Assembly: GCA_020057115.1 (NCBI GenBank)
Contig: JAGVGJ010000027.1
Coordinates: 5,058-69,057 of the forward strand
Direction of reading: 5' to 3'
From: Candidatus Omnitrophota bacterium
Lineage (GTDB): Bacteria > Omnitrophota > Gorgyraeia > 2-01-FULL-45-10
DNA length: 64,000 bases
Made by a program: the position numbers and the translations under genes. The notes under the pieces were generated by a model. The model worked only from the letters and a program-made list of their open reading frames with translations. It was not told where the DNA came from and ran no database searches. Shown here piece by piece: positions 1,586-11,935 of the stretch; positions within the stretch are counted from its first letter, which is position 1, and every line of letters starts with the position of its first letter.

Positions 1586-1647
1586 AGGTAGCCAGTTGCC
1601 GTTTTAAAGCTATCGTTAAAGCTTGGCAAAAAGAACGATAAAGCGAA

Positions 1648-1680
1648 CCCGCTCAAAATTAGAATGAGCGGGTTTTTTAT
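1648..1680 (+). terminator. Rho-independent terminator (cccgctca-N9-tgagcggg followed by TTTTTT)
   Basis: An 8-bp GC-rich stem plus a T6 run at 1673-1678. Confidence 0.7.
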
Positions 1681-1792
1681 TGAGCAGATAATTTACGGAG
1701 TCCGGAGGACGACGTAAATTATAGGCCGAAGGCCGTCTGCGAAATAATCCCGGAATATACCGCTTAAAGGCGTGTGGTTTGCAATATAAGAT

Positions 1793-4700
1793 ATGTTCCG
1801 GGATAGGCATCCTAAAAAAGGCTTGGCAATGGAGAAGAAAAATTTTTTTAGACAGATCGTGAAGGCTTTTATAAAGCATAGAGCGAGGGCGACTGCCCTG
1901 GTGGTCGCGATCGTTTTTTTCTTTAATACGATATATCTTGATGTAGCCTTGGCAGCAAAGACAGATGCGGGGCTTGCCTCTGTTTCAACACCAAGCGCCT
2001 CAACTTCTAAAACATCCCAGCCATATAAAGATCTTAATATCAAAGATTTTATATTACCAGACTATCTTGGGACAATAAAAGACAGATATATATCTCCATC
2101 CGCTTCAGGCGATGTGATGATCCACATCCAGGATGCCCACTGTAACCAGCCATGCCAGAATAAGATCGCCGACATCATCAGCTATCTAAACAGCGAATAC
2201 GGCATCAAGGTTATAAACCTCGAAGGCGGAAGCGGCGAATATGATACGGCCGTATTTACCCGAATAGGCGATATGAATATCCGCCAGAAGGTAGCCGAGA
2301 CTTTCGTCGGCGAAGGCATGCTTAATGGCGGGGAATATTATGCAGTGCTTAATCCTGAGAAGGCCTCTCTCTGGGGCTTAGAGGATGCCTCGCTGTATGT
2401 TAAAAACCTGGATGTCTATCGGGATTCATTGAAGCATAAAGACGAAGTGGACAAATACCTCAAGAGCCTGAACCATGCATTAAGCAGCCTGAAGGCAAAA
2501 ATGTATTCGAAAGACCTGCTTGAACTTGACCTGAAAACTTCAGCCTACAAGTCCGATAATATCGATATGCGTGCGTATCTCGCGTATCTTTGCGATGCAG
2601 CCGTGAGGAAGGGGATGGGTATAGACAAGTTTGCCGATATAGCAAGCCTAAAGAAGGCGATAGACCTGGAGAAGTCCATAGATTTCAGGACGGCCGATGT
2701 CGAGCGAGAAGAGTTGTTCAAGGCCCTGTCGAAACGCCTTTCAAAGAATGCTATGGAAGAATTCGCGGCTAAAGCCATTGAGTTTAAGGCTGAGCGTATC
2801 TCGCCCGAGGTATTTTACGGCTATATGCTTAGCAGGGCCAGGTCTAGCGGGCTTAAGACTGATAAATATCCGGAACTTGCGAAGTATCTGGCTTATGTAT
2901 CAAGCTATGCCTCTATAGATAAGATAAAACTTACCAAGGAGATAGAGTCGCTTGAAAACGCCCTTAAGGAATCATATTTCGAGAATGAGGGCCAGCGTGA
3001 GCTTGCAAGTCTCTCCAAGAACCTTATTATCCTCGCCAATATCTTTAATTTGAAATTATCCAAAGATGATTATGACTATTATCTGGCGAATGAAGGCAAT
3101 TTCGAGACAGCGCTTTATGCGAAGTTTATCCAGAAGAATGCCTCGATATACAAGATAGCGGATAGGCTGGATAACGGGGTATCAGATCTAGATACCTATC
3201 GAAAAGAGATATCAAAATTCTATGAATATTCGCTTAAGAGAGATGATGCGTTCATGAGGAACATGAAATTTGGTGGGGGTCCAGGATCCAGGGGCCAGGG
3301 TCCAGATTCCGAAGTCCGGGGGGCTGTTATCGTGACCGGAGGGTTCCATTCGGAGAACCTGTGTGAGCTATTCAAGAAGAGCGGGATCTCTTACATATCC
3401 ATAATGCCAAGCTTTAAGATAGAAGAAGGCTATGCATGTCCATACTTCAAACTGCTGGCAGGACAGACCGATGGCATGCAGAACAGGCTTTATTCTATAA
3501 TCTCATCCGAAACGCGCACTTCAGGCATGCAGATAGCCAGCATGCTCTCAAGCGCCATAGCCGAGGCGGTATGGGGCAAAGCAAGAGTTAATGCTTTCCG
3601 CGCCGCGGTAGAGATAGATACCATGGTTACGGAAGGCAAGCGCGTCCTCGTCGTAAATGATAAAGGCGAAGTCCTCAAAGATGCGCGAGGCGAAGAGCTT
3701 GTATTTGGCGAGGGCGAGGATAAGCCGATAAGGATTGCGGAGCTTTTAGGTATTCCGTCTGCCGAAGCGCCGGATGTTTATGCAGTACCGGTTCAAGCCG
3801 TAGCGCCTCAGAAAGCAGCGCCTGCGATAACTCCCGCGCCAGCTGCCCCTGTAATCCGGCCGCTTGGAGGAGCTGTTACCGGATGGCTCAAGCGGCTTAC
3901 ACCCGGGATGCCGGAATGGGCGAGGGCGCTCATCGCGGCTCCTATAGTGGAGGAAGGGCTTTATAGAGGGTTTCCGCTGCTGGCGTCAATGGCCACTGTC
4001 TTGATAGCAGGCGCAGGATTTAACTGGCAACTCATCATGATAGGCTCTGTCTTTTTCCAGATACCGGCAGGGCTAAAGTTTATAGCTGATCATTATCCTA
4101 AAGGCAGAGCGCCGCCGTCCGTTATTATCAAGATGTTACTCGCCCCTTCCATAGTCGCAATAATAAATGCCGTTATCCTGCCGCTAGTATTCACGAACCC
4201 GTTCATGTTCACAGGCGCTGCCATATTAAGCCACTTAACGATAAATCTTGCGGTCATGATCGCCAATGCAATATTCCCGAGCGTCAATATCGGCTTTGCC
4301 GCTATAGGGGTTAGCTCCGGTAGGCCAGGCCCTGCTACCTCTAATATCGAAACACTTAAGCGCATGATGAGAGACCATGCATCTGCCCTTGAGAGATCTG
4401 CCTGGGACAGGAGCGGAAGATTGGGAAGATACATGCTGTTGATGCGGGAGCTGTTGGATAAAGGAGTGTTCCGGGTAGACTTTAGGCCCGAGAACGCGAT
4501 CCTTACCGATAATGCCATGAGCGCCCAGACATTTGACTATGACAAGCTGTATGAGGCGACAAACGTCTCATGGGATGAGACTAAATACTTTATATTCGCT
4601 TCCGTGATACAGCCGGCCAGATACGTATTCAGGGAGCTCGCCCGGGACGCATCCGGGAAAGAGAGGGCTGATTGGTTCTCGGAATACTTCAATGATTATC

Positions 4701-7700
4701 TCGATGCCATGTTCCAGGCAGGCGTGGCCAAGAATATAATAGGCGCTCGTTCGAGCCGCCAGAGGGCGAGGATCGTGGGCCTGGTGGATGCATACAATAA
4801 GAACAGAGAAGATGTCTCGATACTGCAAAAGCAGATAGCCACTCTAAAGGGAAAGCTGAAAGAGCTTGAAAGCGCGTCCAGGTCGCCTCAGACAGACGCG
4901 GTAAAGCGAAGCATAGAAGAGAATATCTCGCGCATAGGCTCCGAATACGAGAAGCGGAGCTCGGTAATGAGGTTCATAAGCGATGATATCGAAACATTCC
5001 TCAAGGAAAGCTTCCAGAAGGTCCCGATGGCAAGGCTGGACCAGGCCGAGCGCGAATGGGTCTATTCCCATCCGAGGCTTGCCATGCTTAAACGCCTGGG
5101 GATGAACGATGAATATGACGCGTTGGTAAGGCAGAGGCGCGTTATATTCTCGATCGTCGGGCAAAAAGGGCTGGCGGCATCTGAAGTTAGGACAAGGCAG
5201 GGTGTCGCGGATAAGAATATCACAAGGCCAGTTGATATCGACAGCGGCCTGCAGCAGCTGCTTCGCGCAGGTGTGGGTAAGTTTGCCCAGGGAGGTATTA
5301 ACGGAGTATATGAGAGAAGGCAATTCATAAGCGACCTCAATGCTATGATCGTATCAATGAGACAAGGAATGAGTTTTGCGCAATCATTCGAGAACGCGAT
5401 GAAGGAGAAAGATGCGAACTATAAGCTTGCTTCTTCGTATCGCGACATCCTGACCATGCTTAAGGGCCCGGAAGGCGCAGGTATCGAGACGGCCGCCACC
5501 GCATTTATGAAGAGATTGGCAAGTCGAGATGCGGCCGCGTGGAGCCAGGTCAACATGGTCATGCCGGAAGGCTATGTATTTAAAATGCCGCTTGGCAAGG
5601 ACCTGACATTCCTTGAGTTCAAAGATATAGGCAAGATGCCGGCAAGACAATTGGCAGGCAAGGTGTTCAAGGTAGACTCGGCGACGTCAGCGCTTAGCGC
5701 AGTAGATATGGAAGGCGAAACAGGAAGGCTCTTCCTGTTCGCATTATCCCGCAGGCATGCCGGAGAACTCATAAGGATCGTTAATAGCACGGTCGATCTT
5801 CCTACCGGGGAAAGGGCGGCGATATCAACTATTATATTCCAGGACCGGGAACAGATAGCGATAACCAGAGATGCGCTTGGCCTATTTACAAGAGAGCTTG
5901 GCGGAATCCAGCGTCAGGCGGAATTCTTGAGCATGGCAGCCAAAGACGTGCCGGGCCTCATCAATCCGACAACTTATTTTGAGATAAACGGAAAGGTGTT
6001 CGGTTCCGCCAGTAAAAAGTTCGATGCAGCCCAGGAGGTCCGCAAGGAGATAGATAAGGACATAGGCAGGGAGAATGTTATACGAGAAGGCATGGAAAAA
6101 ATAGATGTTAAGATCAAGCTATCGAGTGCTCCTTTCGGAGCATTTACACCTTACAGGATTTTTGATAGCTCCGGGAACGGCATATCCGTGAAGCGTTATC
6201 AGAATGGCGTGATAACAATAGGGGCGAGGAGAAACGTGGACGGAAAGGTCATGGCGGTCGGGGTTGATGAGACGATGTCCGCAGAGGACCTTGCCGACGA
6301 AAATAGGTTGTACGGACTTATAGAGTCGCTTAACAGAAGGGCGCCCGGCGTTGACTCGGATGCGATGATACGTAAAGTATTTACAGGGATGGGGATCCTG
6401 CTTCCTGGCGTAGGAGAGCCTGCGCTTATGCACGCCGGATTTGGCATAGCGATGTCAGGCTATGCCTTCGCCTCAGTAGAGGATGTAGAAGCTCACAGGG
6501 TTGCCCTGCAGGGCGAGATAGATAAAGGTATCACGCCTAGTAGCTTCGTAAAAGATAAGGTAATAATTGGCGGCAAGGAGATTCAGATAGTAATACATAA
6601 GACAGTATTAGACAGGCTTGATGCCGTAAAGAAGACTTTGCAGGGCTTTATAGAAGAATGTATAAAGATACGCGGGCCGGATTATGAAGCTACATTAAGG
6701 ACTAAGCTTGCAGGAAAACCCCTTATATTCGACGCCCTCACCAGATCTCCAAATCTCTACGGTAATTGCCAGAATGACGGCTATATCTACATAAATACCA
6801 ATTCGCCTATCCAGCTTGATGCGGTAGGTGTCTCTCATGAGTTCATGCATGAAGCGGATATATTCACTGATTCGGAGACCGATGAACAGGCGCTGGCCAA
6901 GAAAGATGTCGAGCTGATGCAGTATGTCGGCATAGATATCGCAAAATTCATGGAAAGACTTAAAGACGTAACGATGCCTACCGGGTATCTTGCAGCTGCG
7001 CTCGCAGCTATAGCATCGGCTAGACCGGTTGGAACGGCAGCGCCCATGCGCTTGGAAGGGGAAAACCTGATAGCTAGCTGCGACCGGTCGAATGCATGCG
7101 ATCTGCCTAACAGGCACAGGTATGTGGAAGATCTTGTTAAAAAATTACGTGAAGGTAAGAGGGTGGAGGTCGTTTCATTGAATATCCAGAACTTCAAGAT
7201 GGAGTTCAATGATAGAGGTAATAGCCTGGGGCCTGAGGTGGGCCATTTATTCGGAGATTTCGGTATACAGGCGGTTGCCGACGCATTGCCGAAGGCCATA
7301 AAGGCTACGTTGGAAGAGAAAGGCATCAAGGGCAATTTCGCGGTTTATAATGACGGGAAAAGTTACTTTGTCATATTTGAAGATATGCCAGCAGGATTCT
7401 CGGCTACAGATGCCCTGGAGTCGATGCTTAAGGATGACAATACTGCCTTCAAACGCAGCGTTGTCAAGAGCGTCATCTCCGAGACCAAAAAGGTGAAAAA
7501 ATGGAATGATGAGGCAACAGCCGATTTCACCAAAAATTTCACGACCCGCAACTTCAACATGTATGCCGGCATCTCTGCGCCGGCCTCCCTGAAGGACGAA
7601 GTTGGTTCCGGCGTAGATATCTTAAAGCTCGCGCAGCGCGCTGTTGCCCAGGCGGATCTTTCGGCAAAGGCCGCCCAGATGAGGACCGGGGAGATACTCA

Positions 7701-10700
7701 ACGCGATATTCCAGCAGTCTGACATGGAGGGCAAGACAGAGGCAGATATCCGAAAGCTGATAATGGATCGTGCTCAGAGCGCAAGGACCATGGCGATAAG
7801 CGCATGGCGCCCGTACGGAGCGCATGTGGAAGATGAAATAGTGGCGCTTGCCAAATACAGCCCTAAAGGCGAGTATGAAGTCATATACAGGCCGATCCCG
7901 GAAGTTTATAACGAAGAGGCTACCTATGAGAATCTTATTAACCAATATAGAGTTGCGCTAAAAGCAAGAGATCCGGCTAAGGTCCTGAAGGCCAAAGAGA
8001 AACTCTACGATAAGATGCTATTCTATGTACCTGAGCCGTCTGTGAGGTCGAGGTATGTGCGGCCGATCATCGTAGGGATGGAAAGGTTCAGGGATGCCAT
8101 AAACGGATTGATAAGGGCCCCGCCCCAGGCCGATTGGTCCGGAACATTTCGCGTGGGAGGGGATGAATTCGCGAAAATCATATTTAATGCCAAGACCGGG
8201 GTCTTGAGGATATTGCGGTTTGACGCGAATAACCTTGGAAAGATGAATGCCGCATGGGGTAGCAGGATCGGTGACAGGGTGATCGATGATATGCTGCGGC
8301 TCATCGATAAAGTGCAGGATCCAAACGACCTGATGGAGTATATCTATAGGTATTTTGACAATACAAATGAACGGGGCGAGAATTTCAGGGACAATCCTCT
8401 GGAGCTGACCGATACGGATCATGCTTATATATTGCGGGAACTCGTCCGGTTAGACATAAAAGATACTTCAAGGTACTTAATTTCAGATGAGAGCGGCAGG
8501 AATTATCTGGTCAAAGTCCCACCGCTATCATTGACGCATCAGGAAACGGGCAGGTCTTATAAGACCGGGCCTTCGGTTTCTGTGGGGCTTGTCGAGATAG
8601 ATACTCACCTCATACCCGGAAAAGATAGAATGCGTGACTTTTCTCCGATCCAGGGCAGGGCCGATTCAACGGCCGAGACAGTTAAGTCATCTATAAAGAG
8701 ATACCAATCCGAGCATGATGGCGCCATCGATTTTGCTGAAGTCAACAGATTGATGGTCAATTCTCAGCCATTCAATACAAAGGCATTGACAACATTCGAG
8801 AGATCGCCTATCGACCCGCTCCGTGAAGAGTTCGCAAGGTTCATCGTATCAAAACTTGAAAAGCCGGCCGCGCCAGTTACACCCGAAATGGCGCCTGTTG
8901 TCCCCGCCGCGCCGGCGCTTGACTTTAATGTGCGCATAGAGGCAGTTTCATTTAAAGGCGTAGAAGCAGAGTCTTGGAATAAATATAAAGAGCTTCTTGA
9001 TATGGCGCAAGAGATCGTATCATCTATCCCGAGAAGCGAGCTATTGACCATTATCCGCAACATATCCGGCAATAAGACGCTGCGTTTTGAAGATATTTCC
9101 AAAGACATAGCCATATCGTATTTTGCGGAAGGAGTCCATAAGTATGTCTTCAGGGTCGCGTTTTCGACGAAAGAGGGCAAACCGCTCGAGATATTGCTTG
9201 CCGCTAAAAAAGAGAAGAACTTAAAAGATATAAGCGGACACGAACTGCAGAACTTGAAGAAACTGCACGGCAGAGGCGTCCCTAAATTCGGTGGGTCGTT
9301 CAGGTCTAAGGACGGCAGGTTGTGGTATCTGGAAGAATTTATCGCCGGAGATACGGTCGGCGCGCTCCAGAAGCAAGGTGCCTTGAAGGACAATGTCAAA
9401 CGCGGCATAGTGGCTACCATGTTATTGATCGCTACCGGACTTAACGGGATGATACCGCGCGACATGCATGCCGAGAATATAATGGTTGAGAAAGGAACGG
9501 GCAGGGTTGTGATGGTGGATCTAGGAGACAGGAGGTTACATATAACAGGCAAAGACGCCACCGATGCCCACAGGATGCTATTTATAGGCATGCTGTTGTC
9601 CCAATACGGCGTTAACGACAAGGAGAGACCTGAGCTTGACCATGTCTTCTTTGACGCCATAGCCAATGACAGATCTCTTTCCGAGGAAGGAAGCCTTGAA
9701 ATGCTGCAAAAGGCGTATGCGGAACTTGAGAAGAGAGGCCAGGCAGGCGTTGTTGGCTATCTGGCCAAAGAAGGGCGCAATATGTTCGTAAGCGTCGGGG
9801 CGCAGAATAGGGATGCTGCGCGCATGGACGATTTTGTAGGCACATTTACAAGAAGCCTCGGATCATACCTTGCTAAGTCAGGCCAGCTCCGCGGCCCGCC
9901 TATTATGCCAATATCTACAGCACCGGTTGCTGCCGCTGTCCCTGGTATTGTGAGCCTTACCGATAATATTGCTGAAGACATGGCGTTGCGCAATGTGATC
10001 GCTCTGGCAAGTTTCAGCCATGCGTCGAACAGGCTTACCGAAATAATGGGCATGGTGCAGATAGTTATGACGCTCACATCTGACATGATAGAGATACTAA
10101 AGAAAGAGAATGCGTCGGACGCCATGTTGAACGAGATGCGAGATATCCGAAGAGGCATGGTCGATGACGGTATAAGCAAAATAATAGAGCTTCACAAAAA
10201 GGCCATAGAACAGATGAGGAGTGGAGGCAAGAAGTATGCTCCTGCAGAAGTGTCTTCATGGAAAGAGGAATACCTTAAAGCGTACCGATCTTTCGAAGCT
10301 TCCGCGAAAAGGTTCGACGGCGTAAAAGAGAAGATGGCGGCCGCCGTAACCGATAAAGAACTGCCAAAACTTCTGAAATGGTATGGTGATGTCGCGCCCA
10401 AGCTTGATGACGTGCTTTCTGACAGGGCCAGTCTTATGACCGGCGAACTTAAAGATGAGTTGATCGATTTGCGCGAGGTCCTTGATCGGGAGCTCTTTAT
10501 AAAATTACTCCAGGCCGTTGTCAATAACCCTGCTACGGAAAGGTATTTCGATATTCGCATGCCCGACGGACCTGTCATGGTCAAGGGCAACAGGATATCG
10601 CTATCAGCACTCTTTACAGACCTTGCTAACAATGCCTATAAGTATGCCGAGAAGGCGCAGAAAGGGAATGCCAAAGTAATCATTGAGCTTGCACTTGAAA

Positions 10701-11935
10701 ACGGCAAGCCAGTGGTCAAGGTGACCGATAACGGCGAGGGCATAACGCCGGAGAAGCTGGCCCAGATGCAGCAGCCGTTCTTCACTACCGGAGGCACGGG
10801 TATCGGCCTTACCGAGTCGCGCATAATAGCCAAGGACCATGGCGGCTCGATCGATGTGCAGTCAGAGCCTGGCAAAGGCGCTATGTTCATAGTCCGCCTG
10901 CCTCTCGCATCAGCACCCGTCTCTATACCGCCTGTCGTCGAGGTCGCTGGGCTGGTGGCGCCGGCACCAGGCGAGAGGGAAGTGGTGAAGGTTGAAAAAG
11001 TGACTACGCCTTTGACAAAGGTGGAAGAGGCTTCCAGGAGGCGTGCGAAAAAGGCTGGCCTTGAGATAGCGGTTTACCGCAAGAATGTAGTTCCGATGGC
11101 TGAGGAATTTGCCAGGTCCAAGGATATCGAAACCCTCAGGCGCGAGCGAGATATATTGCAGCAAAAATTCGAAAGAGGCGAGACATTGCCTATTTACCAG
11201 GATGAAGCGTATGAGCTTGCTATAGAGATGCTAGAGGGTGCGGCGCCGGCTATAACTCCGAGCCAGGTCATCAAGACCGCACTTGCGGATGCGGCTCAGG
11301 GAACCGCGAATATAATAGTCATGGCAGGGTCTGAGATGTATGTTGCCCAGCAGACCAGCATAAACCGCACTATGGCACAGCAGCTCGGCAAGACGCAGAA
11401 TATCACGGTAGTTCCTTACAGCTATAAATACGGGGAGAATATCGATTGGAAGGCCGGCATAACAAAGGTCTTGTCTATGGCAGTGCAGGACCTTCACGCC
11501 AGGATCAAGAAAGGCGATGCTACTGCGCGCGTGATAGTATTTGTGCCATTCGACGGCGTGAAAGATGTGAAGGCGATGGTGGCAGGCATAGACGCCGATA
11601 TGGTGCCCAGGGTGACGGTCGTCGGCGAAGCCAATATGCCGATGGACGGAGGCATAGATAACATAGTCCATATAGCGTCAGGCGTAAGCATGCTTGAATA
11701 TGAAAGATTCCGGAAAGGCGATTACGGTGATGCTGTCATGCCGCAGGAGTCCAAGATGCGCTTAAATGACCTCATGAAGCTTCTGGTCGTAGATCCAGCC
11801 GCTATCGATATAGGAAAACATCCGGATATAATAGACAGGATCCTGGACGGCCTTACCGCCATACCGCTCAGGCCGATCACCGGAGAAATATCCCAGCGCA
11901 TAGAGAGTATGAAGAAAGTCCTTCAATCACTTTAA
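1793..11935 (+). CDS. Giant multidomain protein (3380 aa), a signalling/enzyme mosaic. Order of elements: N-terminal signal/TM anchor; TraB/GumN-like motifs; CPBP (CAAX/Abi) intramembrane protease-like domain; kinase-like DxxxxN loops; an HExxH motif; degenerate and canonical GGDEF motifs; HisKA-like H-box plus HATPase_c.
   Basis: A single uninterrupted 10.1 kb ORF. All antisense ORFs inside it are short and low-complexity. The motifs I read in the translation are listed below.
- Hydrophobic anchor ALVVAIVFFFNTIYLDVALA.
- MIHIQDAH … AVIVTGGFHSENL, which resembles the two signature motifs of the TraB/GumN family.
- EEGLYRG, FIADH and HLTIN, matching the three CPBP motifs EExxxR, FxxxH and HxxxN.
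- FRVDFRPENAIL and IPRDMHAENIM…VVMVDLGD, which are protein-kinase-like.
- VSHEFMHE, an HExxH motif.
- LNIQNFKMEFNDRGNSLGPEVG…YNDGKSYFVIFED, a degenerate GGDEF-like stretch, and FRVGGDEFAKII.
- ASFSHASNRLTEI (H-box-like) followed by DLANNAYKYA, DNGEGI and GTGIGL, the N, G1 and G2 boxes of a GHKL/His-kinase ATPase.
Alternative start at M13 (nt 1829). Confidence 0.85.
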   Translation: MFRDRHPKKGLAMEKKNFFRQIVKAFIKHRARATALVVAIVFFFNTIYLDVALAAKTDAGLASVSTPSASTSKTSQPYKDLNIKDFILPDYLGTIKDRYISPSASGDVMIHIQDAHCNQPCQNKIADIISYLNSEYGIKVINLEGGSGEYDTAVFTRIGDMNIRQKVAETFVGEGMLNGGEYYAVLNPEKASLWGLEDASLYVKNLDVYRDSLKHKDEVDKYLKSLNHALSSLKAKMYSKDLLELDLKTSAYKSDNIDMRAYLAYLCDAAVRKGMGIDKFADIASLKKAIDLEKSIDFRTADVEREELFKALSKRLSKNAMEEFAAKAIEFKAERISPEVFYGYMLSRARSSGLKTDKYPELAKYLAYVSSYASIDKIKLTKEIESLENALKESYFENEGQRELASLSKNLIILANIFNLKLSKDDYDYYLANEGNFETALYAKFIQKNASIYKIADRLDNGVSDLDTYRKEISKFYEYSLKRDDAFMRNMKFGGGPGSRGQGPDSEVRGAVIVTGGFHSENLCELFKKSGISYISIMPSFKIEEGYACPYFKLLAGQTDGMQNRLYSIISSETRTSGMQIASMLSSAIAEAVWGKARVNAFRAAVEIDTMVTEGKRVLVVNDKGEVLKDARGEELVFGEGEDKPIRIAELLGIPSAEAPDVYAVPVQAVAPQKAAPAITPAPAAPVIRPLGGAVTGWLKRLTPGMPEWARALIAAPIVEEGLYRGFPLLASMATVLIAGAGFNWQLIMIGSVFFQIPAGLKFIADHYPKGRAPPSVIIKMLLAPSIVAIINAVILPLVFTNPFMFTGAAILSHLTINLAVMIANAIFPSVNIGFAAIGVSSGRPGPATSNIETLKRMMRDHASALERSAWDRSGRLGRYMLLMRELLDKGVFRVDFRPENAILTDNAMSAQTFDYDKLYEATNVSWDETKYFIFASVIQPARYVFRELARDASGKERADWFSEYFNDYLDAMFQAGVAKNIIGARSSRQRARIVGLVDAYNKNREDVSILQKQIATLKGKLKELESASRSPQTDAVKRSIEENISRIGSEYEKRSSVMRFISDDIETFLKESFQKVPMARLDQAEREWVYSHPRLAMLKRLGMNDEYDALVRQRRVIFSIVGQKGLAASEVRTRQGVADKNITRPVDIDSGLQQLLRAGVGKFAQGGINGVYERRQFISDLNAMIVSMRQGMSFAQSFENAMKEKDANYKLASSYRDILTMLKGPEGAGIETAATAFMKRLASRDAAAWSQVNMVMPEGYVFKMPLGKDLTFLEFKDIGKMPARQLAGKVFKVDSATSALSAVDMEGETGRLFLFALSRRHAGELIRIVNSTVDLPTGERAAISTIIFQDREQIAITRDALGLFTRELGGIQRQAEFLSMAAKDVPGLINPTTYFEINGKVFGSASKKFDAAQEVRKEIDKDIGRENVIREGMEKIDVKIKLSSAPFGAFTPYRIFDSSGNGISVKRYQNGVITIGARRNVDGKVMAVGVDETMSAEDLADENRLYGLIESLNRRAPGVDSDAMIRKVFTGMGILLPGVGEPALMHAGFGIAMSGYAFASVEDVEAHRVALQGEIDKGITPSSFVKDKVIIGGKEIQIVIHKTVLDRLDAVKKTLQGFIEECIKIRGPDYEATLRTKLAGKPLIFDALTRSPNLYGNCQNDGYIYINTNSPIQLDAVGVSHEFMHEADIFTDSETDEQALAKKDVELMQYVGIDIAKFMERLKDVTMPTGYLAAALAAIASARPVGTAAPMRLEGENLIASCDRSNACDLPNRHRYVEDLVKKLREGKRVEVVSLNIQNFKMEFNDRGNSLGPEVGHLFGDFGIQAVADALPKAIKATLEEKGIKGNFAVYNDGKSYFVIFEDMPAGFSATDALESMLKDDNTAFKRSVVKSVISETKKVKKWNDEATADFTKNFTTRNFNMYAGISAPASLKDEVGSGVDILKLAQRAVAQADLSAKAAQMRTGEILNAIFQQSDMEGKTEADIRKLIMDRAQSARTMAISAWRPYGAHVEDEIVALAKYSPKGEYEVIYRPIPEVYNEEATYENLINQYRVALKARDPAKVLKAKEKLYDKMLFYVPEPSVRSRYVRPIIVGMERFRDAINGLIRAPPQADWSGTFRVGGDEFAKIIFNAKTGVLRILRFDANNLGKMNAAWGSRIGDRVIDDMLRLIDKVQDPNDLMEYIYRYFDNTNERGENFRDNPLELTDTDHAYILRELVRLDIKDTSRYLISDESGRNYLVKVPPLSLTHQETGRSYKTGPSVSVGLVEIDTHLIPGKDRMRDFSPIQGRADSTAETVKSSIKRYQSEHDGAIDFAEVNRLMVNSQPFNTKALTTFERSPIDPLREEFARFIVSKLEKPAAPVTPEMAPVVPAAPALDFNVRIEAVSFKGVEAESWNKYKELLDMAQEIVSSIPRSELLTIIRNISGNKTLRFEDISKDIAISYFAEGVHKYVFRVAFSTKEGKPLEILLAAKKEKNLKDISGHELQNLKKLHGRGVPKFGGSFRSKDGRLWYLEEFIAGDTVGALQKQGALKDNVKRGIVATMLLIATGLNGMIPRDMHAENIMVEKGTGRVVMVDLGDRRLHITGKDATDAHRMLFIGMLLSQYGVNDKERPELDHVFFDAIANDRSLSEEGSLEMLQKAYAELEKRGQAGVVGYLAKEGRNMFVSVGAQNRDAARMDDFVGTFTRSLGSYLAKSGQLRGPPIMPISTAPVAAAVPGIVSLTDNIAEDMALRNVIALASFSHASNRLTEIMGMVQIVMTLTSDMIEILKKENASDAMLNEMRDIRRGMVDDGISKIIELHKKAIEQMRSGGKKYAPAEVSSWKEEYLKAYRSFEASAKRFDGVKEKMAAAVTDKELPKLLKWYGDVAPKLDDVLSDRASLMTGELKDELIDLREVLDRELFIKLLQAVVNNPATERYFDIRMPDGPVMVKGNRISLSALFTDLANNAYKYAEKAQKGNAKVIIELALENGKPVVKVTDNGEGITPEKLAQMQQPFFTTGGTGIGLTESRIIAKDHGGSIDVQSEPGKGAMFIVRLPLASAPVSIPPVVEVAGLVAPAPGEREVVKVEKVTTPLTKVEEASRRRAKKAGLEIAVYRKNVVPMAEEFARSKDIETLRRERDILQQKFERGETLPIYQDEAYELAIEMLEGAAPAITPSQVIKTALADAAQGTANIIVMAGSEMYVAQQTSINRTMAQQLGKTQNITVVPYSYKYGENIDWKAGITKVLSMAVQDLHARIKKGDATARVIVFVPFDGVKDVKAMVAGIDADMVPRVTVVGEANMPMDGGIDNIVHIASGVSMLEYERFRKGDYGDAVMPQESKMRLNDLMKLLVVDPAAIDIGKHPDIIDRILDGLTAIPLRPITGEISQRIESMKKVLQSL

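Follow-up and report, generated by a model that had tools for sequence, protein, structure and literature searches.

The window analysed here is a 64,000-nucleotide stretch of a contig from a Candidatus Omnitrophota bacterium (GenBank assembly GCA_020057115.1, contig JAGVGJ010000027.1, positions 5,058 to 69,057 of the forward strand). It contains one very long gene, an open reading frame (ORF) at positions 1793..11935 (+) that runs for 3380 codons without a stop. Sequence comparisons indicate that the encoded protein, referred to below as the giant, is not a one-off fusion and is a cargo-expanded member of a large, apparently undescribed family of paralogues, specific to Omnitrophota, whose proteins share a head and a tail domain and have mosaic middles. 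With moderate confidence, we propose that it is an exported mosaic envelope protein of ~370 kDa, built as beads on a string and stapled into the membrane. A first-pass annotation of the window had described a single uninterrupted ORF in which several different enzyme-type modules are fused, with an Omnitrophota-like source and a combination of domains absent from any characterised protein. Our analysis agrees on each of these points, and the relatives of the N-terminal part of the giant are all from Omnitrophota. About half of the individual motifs named in that annotation also hold; a first DxxxxN segment and a histidine-kinase H-box are unsupported, and a literal GGDEF sits in a non-canonical context.

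The giant begins with a signal-peptide-like N-terminus (aa 1-55, 1793..1957, +) that has 11 K/R residues, the hydrophobic stretch ATALVVAIVFFFNTIYL and then DVALA/AK. An alternative start at M13 (position 1829) gives a protein of 3368 aa. Across the family the N-terminal pattern is a K/R-rich start, a hydrophobic core of 12-17 aa and D.AWA/A, and by their sequence these N-termini look like Sec signal peptides. The family head follows (aa ~78-650, 2024..3742, +), with a TIKI/TraB/ChaN/erythromycin-esterase-like alpha/beta core and a ~300-aa helical insertion. Over its first ~650 aa the giant is 40-51% identical to the N-termini of 44 Omnitrophota proteins that are 500-1567 aa long. An AlphaFold model of the head computed from the alignment of these relatives is confident (predicted local distance difference test, pLDDT, of 84.4) and has an alpha/beta core with a central parallel sheet, as in solved members of the TIKI, TraB, ChaN and erythromycin-esterase families. 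The invariant residues of the head include D114, H116, E144, R483 and H519. In 45 sequences, D114-A-H116, E144 (28 aa past the His) and H519 (in GGFH) are all invariant; this arrangement of D-x-H, an E 28 residues on and a distant H mirrors, by spacing only, the catalytic set of RRSP (E3900, H3902, E3930 and H4030; PMC6254334). Membership of the head in the TIKI superfamily is moderately supported. The helical insertion (aa ~199-490, nt ~2387-3262) gave weak Foldseek matches (probability 0.02-0.1, not significant) to coiled coils, to Tc toxins and to components of alpha-pore-forming toxins (AhlB/C, YaxA, XaxB and MakA).

The chain is closed by the family tail domain (aa ~3123-3380, 11159..11932, +), delimited with a hidden Markov model (HMM) built from eight copies (alignment A4). 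This domain of ~260 aa was found in 38 of the 132 family proteins and always at the extreme C-terminus, 0-1 aa from the end and once 8 aa from it. It has no match in PDB, Pfam or NCBIfam. Family members of 870-960 aa consist of the signal, the head and the tail only, and in the giant about 2450 aa of cargo lie between head and tail. A scan of one genome per GTDB species, queried with the head alignment, recovered at least 445 relatives of the head, often several per genome and all of them from Omnitrophota (some of the records are titled 'uncultured Planctomycetia' and were counted within Omnitrophota). ORFs that start with a head range from ~600 aa to more than 3900 aa, and many of them run off the 10-kb flank. 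No conserved gene neighbourhood was seen among the family members.

The middles of these proteins are mosaic. Modules of the giant recur elsewhere in the family, each singly and at unrelated positions: a CPBP module in four members, a protein-kinase-like module in another set of four and a GGDEF-like block in one. A module with an HExxH motif is present in 17 proteins of the search set, which includes 16 representative-library matches retrieved by the same region. The histidine-kinase-type module and the orphan stretch of the giant were found in no other family member searched. At least seven complete members of 2.3-3.8 thousand amino acids (kaa) have no further hydrophobic segment after the N-terminus in a hydropathy scan. 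Among the members free of transmembrane (TM) segments, Pfam identifies PPDK_N and PEP-utilizers in relative L012, an AP_endonuc_2 barrel in L032 and nothing in L038; the Pfam cargo of other relatives is PFK, GNAT, AAA_18 or Metallophos.

In the giant, the head is followed by a Pro/Ala-rich linker (aa 655-700, 3755..3892, +) and a CPBP (Rce1-like) module (aa ~706-830, 3908..4282, +), a cluster of about four hydrophobic helices. The motifs EExxxR (at 720), FxxxH (at 763) and HxxxN (at 814) occur in this order inside the hydrophobic cluster at 706-838. The Pfam Rce1-like family (PF02517) scores the giant at 18.1 bits (E=0.0033), below its cutoff of 22.4. One family member matches PF02517 at E=7.7e-6, and the relative P0036, which is 32% identical to the giant over aa 45-811, carries PF02517. 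The giant's CPBP module was also found by phmmer in L055, P0002, L031 and L074. All three motifs are kept in P0002, L031 and L074, while P0036 keeps the module but ends before the third motif. The CPBP domain of the first-pass annotation is probable on these comparisons, since the three ordered motifs and their conservation in relatives speak for it, although it falls short of the Pfam gathering score. Directly after the CPBP module of P0002, aa ~840-905 form a canonical-looking Ser/Thr kinase N-lobe (LGSGGFGMVFKA...AAVKVL); the order of CPBP then kinase looks to recur there, but with a different kinase.

Further Pro/Ala linkers lie at aa ~1732-1753, 2355-2378, ~2700-2720 and ~3045-3075; three of the linkers were found by their P/A content and the last two (~2700-2720 and ~3045-3075) were read from the translation. 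Repeats in the linker DNA were considered as recombination sites and rejected, as no DNA-level repeats were found. The heptapeptide AAPAITP occurs in two Pro/Ala-rich linkers (aa 675-681 and 3150-3156, nt ~3815-3835 and ~11240-11260), and this pair has no matching DNA repeat.

After the CPBP module comes an orphan segment (aa 850-1535, 4340..6397, +) with no match in Pfam, NCBIfam, PADLOC or PDB. A phmmer search of this segment against 1.84 billion representative proteins returned the giant itself and a single 41.7-bit match. The segment contains the first DxxxxN (at 896), which had been read as a kinase-like loop (D896..N901); DxxxxN occurs 11 times in the chain and no profile matches here, and we do not retain that reading. 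The next module, at aa ~1536-1725 (6398..6967, +), has the motifs HAGFG..M / SPNLYGNC..DGYIYIN / GVSHEfMHEA and contains the only HExxH of the giant, at aa 1682. Of its 17 phmmer matches, 13 reach E<=1e-10, and the relatives are mostly other proteins of 1.2-5.8 kaa. An alignment of 10 sequences has H1547, H1682, E1683, H1686, E1698 and D1705 as invariants, so that the H, E and H of the predicted HExxH motif are fixed within a conserved module of ~190 aa. E1698, D1705 and H1547 are candidates for a third ligand. The HExxH of the zincin motif named earlier is thus real and part of an unclassified module, which has no match in PDB, Pfam or NCBIfam.

The GGDEF-related double block (aa ~1757-2353, 7061..8851, +) was delimited from a Pfam slice match and from stand-alone homologues, and is a conserved unit of ~600 aa. 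Its first copy (aa ~1765-1880) matches the N-terminal half of GGDEF models and is recognised by Pfam, NCBIfam and PDB entry 3icl, with NDGKSY at the signature position. The stretch earlier called degenerate GGDEF-like is therefore GGDEF-related in its N-terminal half and has lost the signature. The second part holds a literal GGDEF (aa 2122-2126, nt 8156-8170), invariant as GGDE in two homologues, about 20 aa upstream of a beta1-like FDANNLGKMN motif (FD.NNLG..N..WG.R.GD). In a canonical GGDEF domain the metal-binding beta1 strand comes first and the GG(D/E)EF hairpin about 40 aa after it; judged from the sequence, the motif order in the second part is reversed with respect to that of a canonical domain. 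What had been annotated as a true GGDEF is thus an invariant motif (GGDE) outside the canonical domain context. Using an approximate PleD query sequence, hhalign pairs the FD.NNLG motif weakly with the beta1/alphaA element of PleD.

Profile scores for the block lie on both sides of the cutoffs. The Pfam GGDEF family (PF00990) reaches 30.2 bits over two stretches with the slice 1751-2200 and 22.8 bits with the whole protein, against a cutoff of 23.8. TIGR00254 gives 23.7 bits on the block, below its cutoff of 37.4, and NCBIfam diguanylate cyclase models match at E=1e-5 to 1e-3, again below their cutoffs. An AlphaFold2 model of the block from a 3-sequence alignment has a pLDDT of 44, with moderate confidence only at aa ~1780-1920, where it forms a beta-alpha-alpha-beta-beta unit; a Foldseek search with this low-confidence model found nothing significant. 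A metagenome scan yielded no further relatives of the block. Other PDB matches of the block, and those of the tail, the HExxH module and the orphan segment, were chance ones, to HK97 capsid, staphylococcal nuclease and the like.

The stand-alone homologues of the block, P0183 (723 aa) and P0184, each have their own signal-peptide-like N-terminus. P0183 is encoded in a PVC-group genome (GCA_024231215.1) as the last of three consecutive same-strand genes (locus L080, 3374-8172 (+), JAAEQR010000072.1). The first of these encodes a head-only protein of 546 aa that is 27% identical to aa 83-566 of the giant, the second is a 248-aa ORF, and all three proteins start signal-peptide-like. The occurrence of an un-fused head and an un-fused block as adjacent signal-peptide genes argues for a functional link between the two and for a block that works outside the cytoplasm. 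In the last two proteins of this locus the signal regions finish almost identically (NTVWA), and both chains terminate in ...EQAI.

The protein-kinase-like module (aa ~2390-2690, 8960..9862, +) has the catalytic loop RDMHAENIMV, with D2557 and N2562 as the catalytic-loop residues, and a DLG at 2576. PD-T4-6 kinase models of PADLOC match it at E=4.7e-9, and PADLOC gave no defence-system match apart from this kinase. The PDB matches are APH(3'), Rad53 and STK24/25 (E=0.003-0.02); the loop and the DLG align to kinase elements in these matches, and the best of them, APH(3'), extends past the DLG. Pfam Pkinase scores 16.6, below its cutoff of 31.7, and a candidate beta3 Lys in LLAAKK was picked out by eye from the translation. 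The module is also present in L010, L008, P0171 and P0172. The second of the two kinase-like segments predicted earlier (D2557..N2562) accordingly belongs to a genuine protein-kinase-like domain, as the PADLOC and PDB matches show.

The histidine-kinase-type module (aa ~2720-3045, 9950..10927, +) contains an HATPase_c domain (aa 2933-3039, nt 10589-10909) that matches PF02518 with 73.8 bits (E=1.9e-20), and many NCBIfam kinase models match the same stretch. The translation shows an N, a G1, an F and a G2 box (DLANNAYKYA, DNGEGI, FFTT and GGTGIGL, respectively), and the complete GHKL ATPase of the first-pass annotation is confirmed by these boxes and by the Pfam score. Its H-box is not: whole-protein and sliced Pfam scans gave no HisKA-type match, and none of the alignments to 120 histidine kinases extends N-terminally beyond aa ~2819 or covers an H-box. 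The segment SFSHASNRL at 2738, about 215 aa before the N-box, is an eye-match only. A search with aa 2701-3380 was dominated by ordinary histidine kinases and gave nothing beyond HATPase_c, and no receiver domain was found in the ten neighbouring ORFs scanned.

Upstream of the giant, the 450-nt gap between the alanine racemase gene (alr) and the ORF contains an aptamer for cyclic di-GMP (c-di-GMP) of the c-di-GMP-I class (RF01051; 1452..1603, +), whose P2 hairpin has a 63-nt extension. It scores 49 bits against an Rfam gathering threshold of 35 (E=1.5e-6 over the whole window, model positions 1-87), and 65 bits with a covariance model (R1) made from the Rfam consensus plus the giant's own riboswitch copy. 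The leader folds with z=-4.5 relative to shuffled sequences. The aptamer is followed by an intrinsic-terminator-like hairpin and U-run (1647..1682, +), formed by the octamers ACCCGCUC / GAGCGGGU around an 11-nt loop. This hairpin was read from the sequence and is present in the minimum free energy (MFE) fold; a consensus scanner with a loop limit of 8 missed it. The hairpin is the presumed expression platform. An alternative pairing joins GAGUGGGU (1478-1485, the 3' arm of aptamer helix P1a) with ACCCGCUC (1647-1654, the 5' arm of the terminator); it is the MFE structure of the nascent transcript folded as far as the 3' arm of the terminator, and in the full leader it lies 5.1 kcal/mol above the MFE. 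The riboswitch is predicted to be an OFF switch in which ligand favours termination, because the ligand would lock the aptamer and free the terminator to form.

Within the family, the riboswitch is specific to this gene. As a family-wide trait it was rejected, with none of 77 related family loci carrying one upstream (regular expression search and R1). The only other R1 match, a second Omnitrophota copy at L075 (8364-8450 (-), 48 bits), lies upstream of a PEP-CTERM gene (ORF 8249..7554 (-), 231 aa, signal peptide plus PEP-CTERM) and is divergent from the head-family gene of that locus; the ORFs between the two genes may be a sigma/anti-sigma pair, as judged by eye only. c-di-GMP-I riboswitches are often found upstream of genes for secreted or surface proteins.

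In the build that we propose, a Sec-type signal and a TIKI/TraB head of ~570 aa are followed by Pro/Ala-linked cargo in the order CPBP, 690-aa orphan, HExxH, GGDEF double block, kinase-like domain and histidine-kinase-type ATPase, and a tail of ~260 aa closes the chain. The set and order of the modules, membership of the family, the rule of head and tail, the mosaic middles and the riboswitch are shown by the sequence data; export and topology, hydrolase activity, the sign of the switch and the role of the cargo are inferred. The c-di-GMP-I riboswitch and its terminator would gate transcription. The N-terminus would be exported and the helices of the CPBP module would staple the chain in the membrane. 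The head, whose catalytic set D114, H116, E144 and H519 is apparently intact, would be a processing hydrolase, perhaps together with the CPBP and HExxH modules, acting on the chain itself or on substrates from envelope or host, and the middle modules would be an exchangeable payload. The export cues are the signal-peptide-like N-termini, the members without further hydrophobic segments and the signal-bearing stand-alone block, and they suggest that head, cargo and tail lie outside the cytoplasm.

Several points weigh against this proposal, and the cues on topology conflict. GHKL ATPase, kinase and GGDEF-like modules use ATP or GTP and are hard to reconcile with a place outside the cytoplasm. 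In the CPBP module the short loop HYPKGRAPPS is K/R-rich, as are the two flanks, and the positive-inside rule would put these flanks and the loop in the cytoplasm, in conflict with an exported head if there are four helices. The CPBP module aligns as a four-helix Rce1-type core, and in those relatives whose segment between motifs 1 and 2 is shorter this segment cannot hold an extra helix; such a four-helix core would place both flanks on the same side of the membrane. Hydropathy counts are crude, and a TM-parity comparison of the sidedness of head and tail gave no decision. For the head, catalytic equivalence with RRSP is suggested by spacing only. A Foldseek search of the head against PDB returned no significant TIKI match, its list being dominated by weak matches of the ~300-aa helical insertion. 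A match of the head to TraB/GumN profiles is also absent (Pfam at E<=5, NCBIfam at E<=0.1), so that the earlier TraB/GumN-like label keeps the fold and the catalytic-residue pattern and loses the sequence-profile match. No conserved cleavage motif was found in the linkers. The predicted sign of the riboswitch comes from thermodynamic folding alone, and the riboswitch is no family trait, being absent upstream of the family genes at the 77 related loci.

In a second arrangement, which we consider rather unlikely, only the head is periplasmic, the CPBP module returns the chain to the cytoplasm and the protein is a cytoplasmic signalling hub with c-di-GMP feedback. The GGDEF-like block would then make c-di-GMP or a related nucleotide and shut the gene off through its own riboswitch, the kinase and histidine-kinase-type ATPase modules would signal, and the periplasmic head would be a sensor or processing domain. 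Such a hub would account for an intact GHKL ATPase with its N/G1/F/G2 boxes and strong Pfam score, for the kinase catalytic loop and DLG motif, and for the GGDE and the D/N/D set that are invariant in the block; the positive-inside cues likewise put the CPBP flanks and the short loop in the cytoplasm, and feedback is suggested by the position of a c-di-GMP riboswitch in front of a gene that bears GGDEF. The arrangement needs an odd number of membrane passes, yet CPBP aligns as a four-helix Rce1-type unit. In addition, the GGDEF-like block comes with a signal peptide of its own in the homologues where it stands alone, and half of the tail-bearing members have no TM segment after the signal, which leaves their cargo on the side of the exported head. 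No H-box was found, nor a receiver domain in the ten neighbouring ORFs scanned, and of the GGDEF copies the first has degenerated and the second departs from the canonical order. The first-pass annotation had itself suggested a membrane-anchored sensing hub; the cytoplasmic ATP/GTP domains that this assumes are in strain with the signal-peptide-like N-termini of the family and of the GGDEF-block homologues.

Export might also serve a different end. In a reading that we find doubtful, the giant is a secreted polyprotein or effector array comparable to MARTX; a polyprotein was the other possibility named in the first-pass annotation. The proteases of the chain (head, CPBP or HExxH) would cut it at the Pro/Ala linkers, and the freed cytoplasm-type enzymes (kinase, cyclase-like, ATPase) would act inside host or prey, where nucleotides are available. 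Family signal peptides in front of cytoplasm-type cargo (PPDK_N in the TM-free L012, and PFK, GNAT, AAA_18 and Metallophos elsewhere) are in keeping with it, as are up to three protease-type modules in one chain. Two delivered effectors, RRSP of MARTX and the type III effector HopBA1, are among the known relatives with a TIKI fold. In published work Omnitrophota are proposed to live as predators or episymbionts, and their N-terminal peptidases are suggested to cleave giants. Against an effector array, no conserved cleavage site, MARTX repeats, cysteine protease domain or adjacent secretion genes were seen, and there is no evidence of processing. Four CPBP helices would hold the chain in the membrane of the producer, and the gene lies in a neighbourhood of housekeeping and envelope biosynthesis.

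A broader idea, to which we give an equally low standing, is that the head-and-tail family is an unrecognised Omnitrophota export/display system for cytoplasm-type enzymes, gated by c-di-GMP in the present case. The chain would take the enzymes through the membrane, and its own proteases would release or display them to act on or in host or prey; one payload may be a circularly permuted, secreted GGDEF-type palm domain.

The integrity of the gene itself is less in question. Base composition is uniform across the ORF and like that of its surroundings, and the ORF has no internal DNA repeats above chance-level 15-27-mers. Dozens of independent assemblies, one of them a complete chromosome, hold ORFs of the same build of 2-4 kaa or longer. 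Chimeric assembly is unlikely because of this absence of internal repeats, the uniform composition and the recurrence of the same build in dozens of assemblies. The giant is already public on a 77.9-kb contig, where NCBI calls it from M13 (3368 aa) and IMG from M1 (3380 aa) as 'signal transduction histidine kinase/GGDEF domain-containing protein'. It is very improbable that unrelated genes were joined here, by mis-assembly or in a pseudogene under decay: the 690-aa orphan and the histidine-kinase-type module, which have no counterpart in relatives, would fit it, but 3380 sense codons in a row of uniform composition and without mis-joining repeats, an N-terminal head and an exactly C-terminal tail as in intact relatives, the same build in independent assemblies and the same protein called by both NCBI and IMG all speak against it.

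A general neighbourhood scan covered alr upstream (187-1341) and the genes downstream (12033-61000). Downstream of the giant lie a PMT_2 glycosyltransferase, an ABC-2/ABC transporter pair and many glycosyltransferases, and farther on heptosyltransferases, LpxK, a Kdo transferase, a lipid A acyltransferase, ilv genes, topoisomerase I and DprA. By these annotations the neighbourhood is one of housekeeping and envelope biosynthesis, and no secretion-system or PilZ gene is among the families listed for it. GC content steps near window position ~28000, from about 0.45-0.49 (1-28 kb) to about 0.52-0.55 (28-64 kb), and one ORF somewhere between 21 and 61 kb matches Phage_integrase (E=6.6e-49).

A shared head together with an always-terminal tail would give a definable family of Omnitrophota mosaic proteins. 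The head-and-tail rule would tell complete from truncated genes in fragmented assemblies, and the minimal two-domain form (~900 aa) would be expressible and studiable. The un-fused operon and the signal peptides sharpen the question of why nucleotide-using, cytoplasm-type enzymes leave the cell, and the riboswitch provides a directly testable regulatory input (c-di-GMP) for one giant gene.

Giant mosaic proteins, multi-enzyme giants among them, are a hallmark of Omnitrophota. West-Roberts et al. (2023, 10.1101/2023.11.21.568195) describe giant proteins ('Archaeovorins') with N-terminal C39 or S8 peptidases beside signal peptides, in which most domains are predicted to be extracellular, some of these placements seeming 'highly unlikely' to the authors, a difficulty of the same kind as the one met here; GGDEF domains occur in giant proteins, with PilZ genes downstream. 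Nielsen & Lui (2026, 10.64898/2026.06.07.730766) report multi-enzyme giants (class 'multi-enzyme metabolic cluster') of which 94% bear a signal peptide or TM segments, with PF02518 among the commonest domains and with 80% of long-protein clusters being singletons. In the accessible sections of this literature the functions of the giants are called poorly understood and few conserved features are reported. The protein described here shares with these giants the phylum, a single ORF that tiles divergent enzyme domains (HATPase_c, GGDEF, PPDK_N, GNAT), the presence of signal peptides and TM segments, an N-terminal peptidase beside the signal peptide and a hinted link to c-di-GMP (GGDEF domains, downstream PilZ genes). 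It differs in size, since the catalogued giants have at least 10 kaa or genes of more than 90 kb and the present protein has 3.4 kaa, and in its head, which is TIKI-like where their N-terminal peptidases are C39 or S8. A term search of the accessible Omnitrophota giant-protein literature gave no mention of TraB, Tiki or riboswitch, and a literature search found no paper that links c-di-GMP riboswitches and Omnitrophota. As far as the accessible text of that literature goes, the TIKI-like head family, the obligate tail, the minimal head-plus-tail form and the HExxH module are apparently undescribed, as are the secreted GGDEF-related block with its reversed motif order and the riboswitch. The kind of protein is known; this gene is a smaller example whose precise combination of domains is new, which is normal for such proteins.

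The individual parts can be compared in the same way. Like the TIKI superfamily (RRSP, PMC6254334), several members of which are extracytoplasmic or delivered effectors, the head has D/E-x-H...(28 aa)...E...H. Unlike them, it has no profile match, an Asp in place of the first Glu and a ~300-aa helical insertion that splits the core, and it invariably follows a signal peptide and opens a long mosaic protein. The CPBP module resembles CPBP proteases (PF02517) in having EExxxR, FxxxH and HxxxN ordered on approximately four hydrophobic helices; it scores below threshold and lies mid-chain in a protein of 3380 aa, with its position in relatives ranging from aa ~650 to ~3200. The GGDEF-related block shares with GGDEF cyclases (PF00990/TIGR00254) the LPNR..., NFK..ND and GH..GD motifs in copy 1, and an invariant R/K-x-GGDE(F/L) and a D..N..GD strand-helix motif in part 2, whereas the signature of copy 1 is lost, the hairpin of copy 2 comes ~20 aa before the strand and the stand-alone homologues are secreted. 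The leader agrees with c-di-GMP-I (GEMM-I) riboswitches in passing the Rfam gathering threshold, in its GNRA tetraloop helix and in having a terminator next to it, and departs from the GEMM-I norm in the 63-nt extension of P2 and in controlling a 10-kb single-gene transcript.

In how it would work, and only in this, the giant can be compared with MARTX toxins. These are likewise very long and secreted, keep their two ends constant and vary a mosaic array of enzyme modules between them from strain to strain, and their effector sets include a TIKI-fold protease. The giant has no glycine-rich repeats or cysteine protease domain, no type I secretion genes were seen nearby, and the TIKI-like domain, which is a cargo module in MARTX, is here the constant head.

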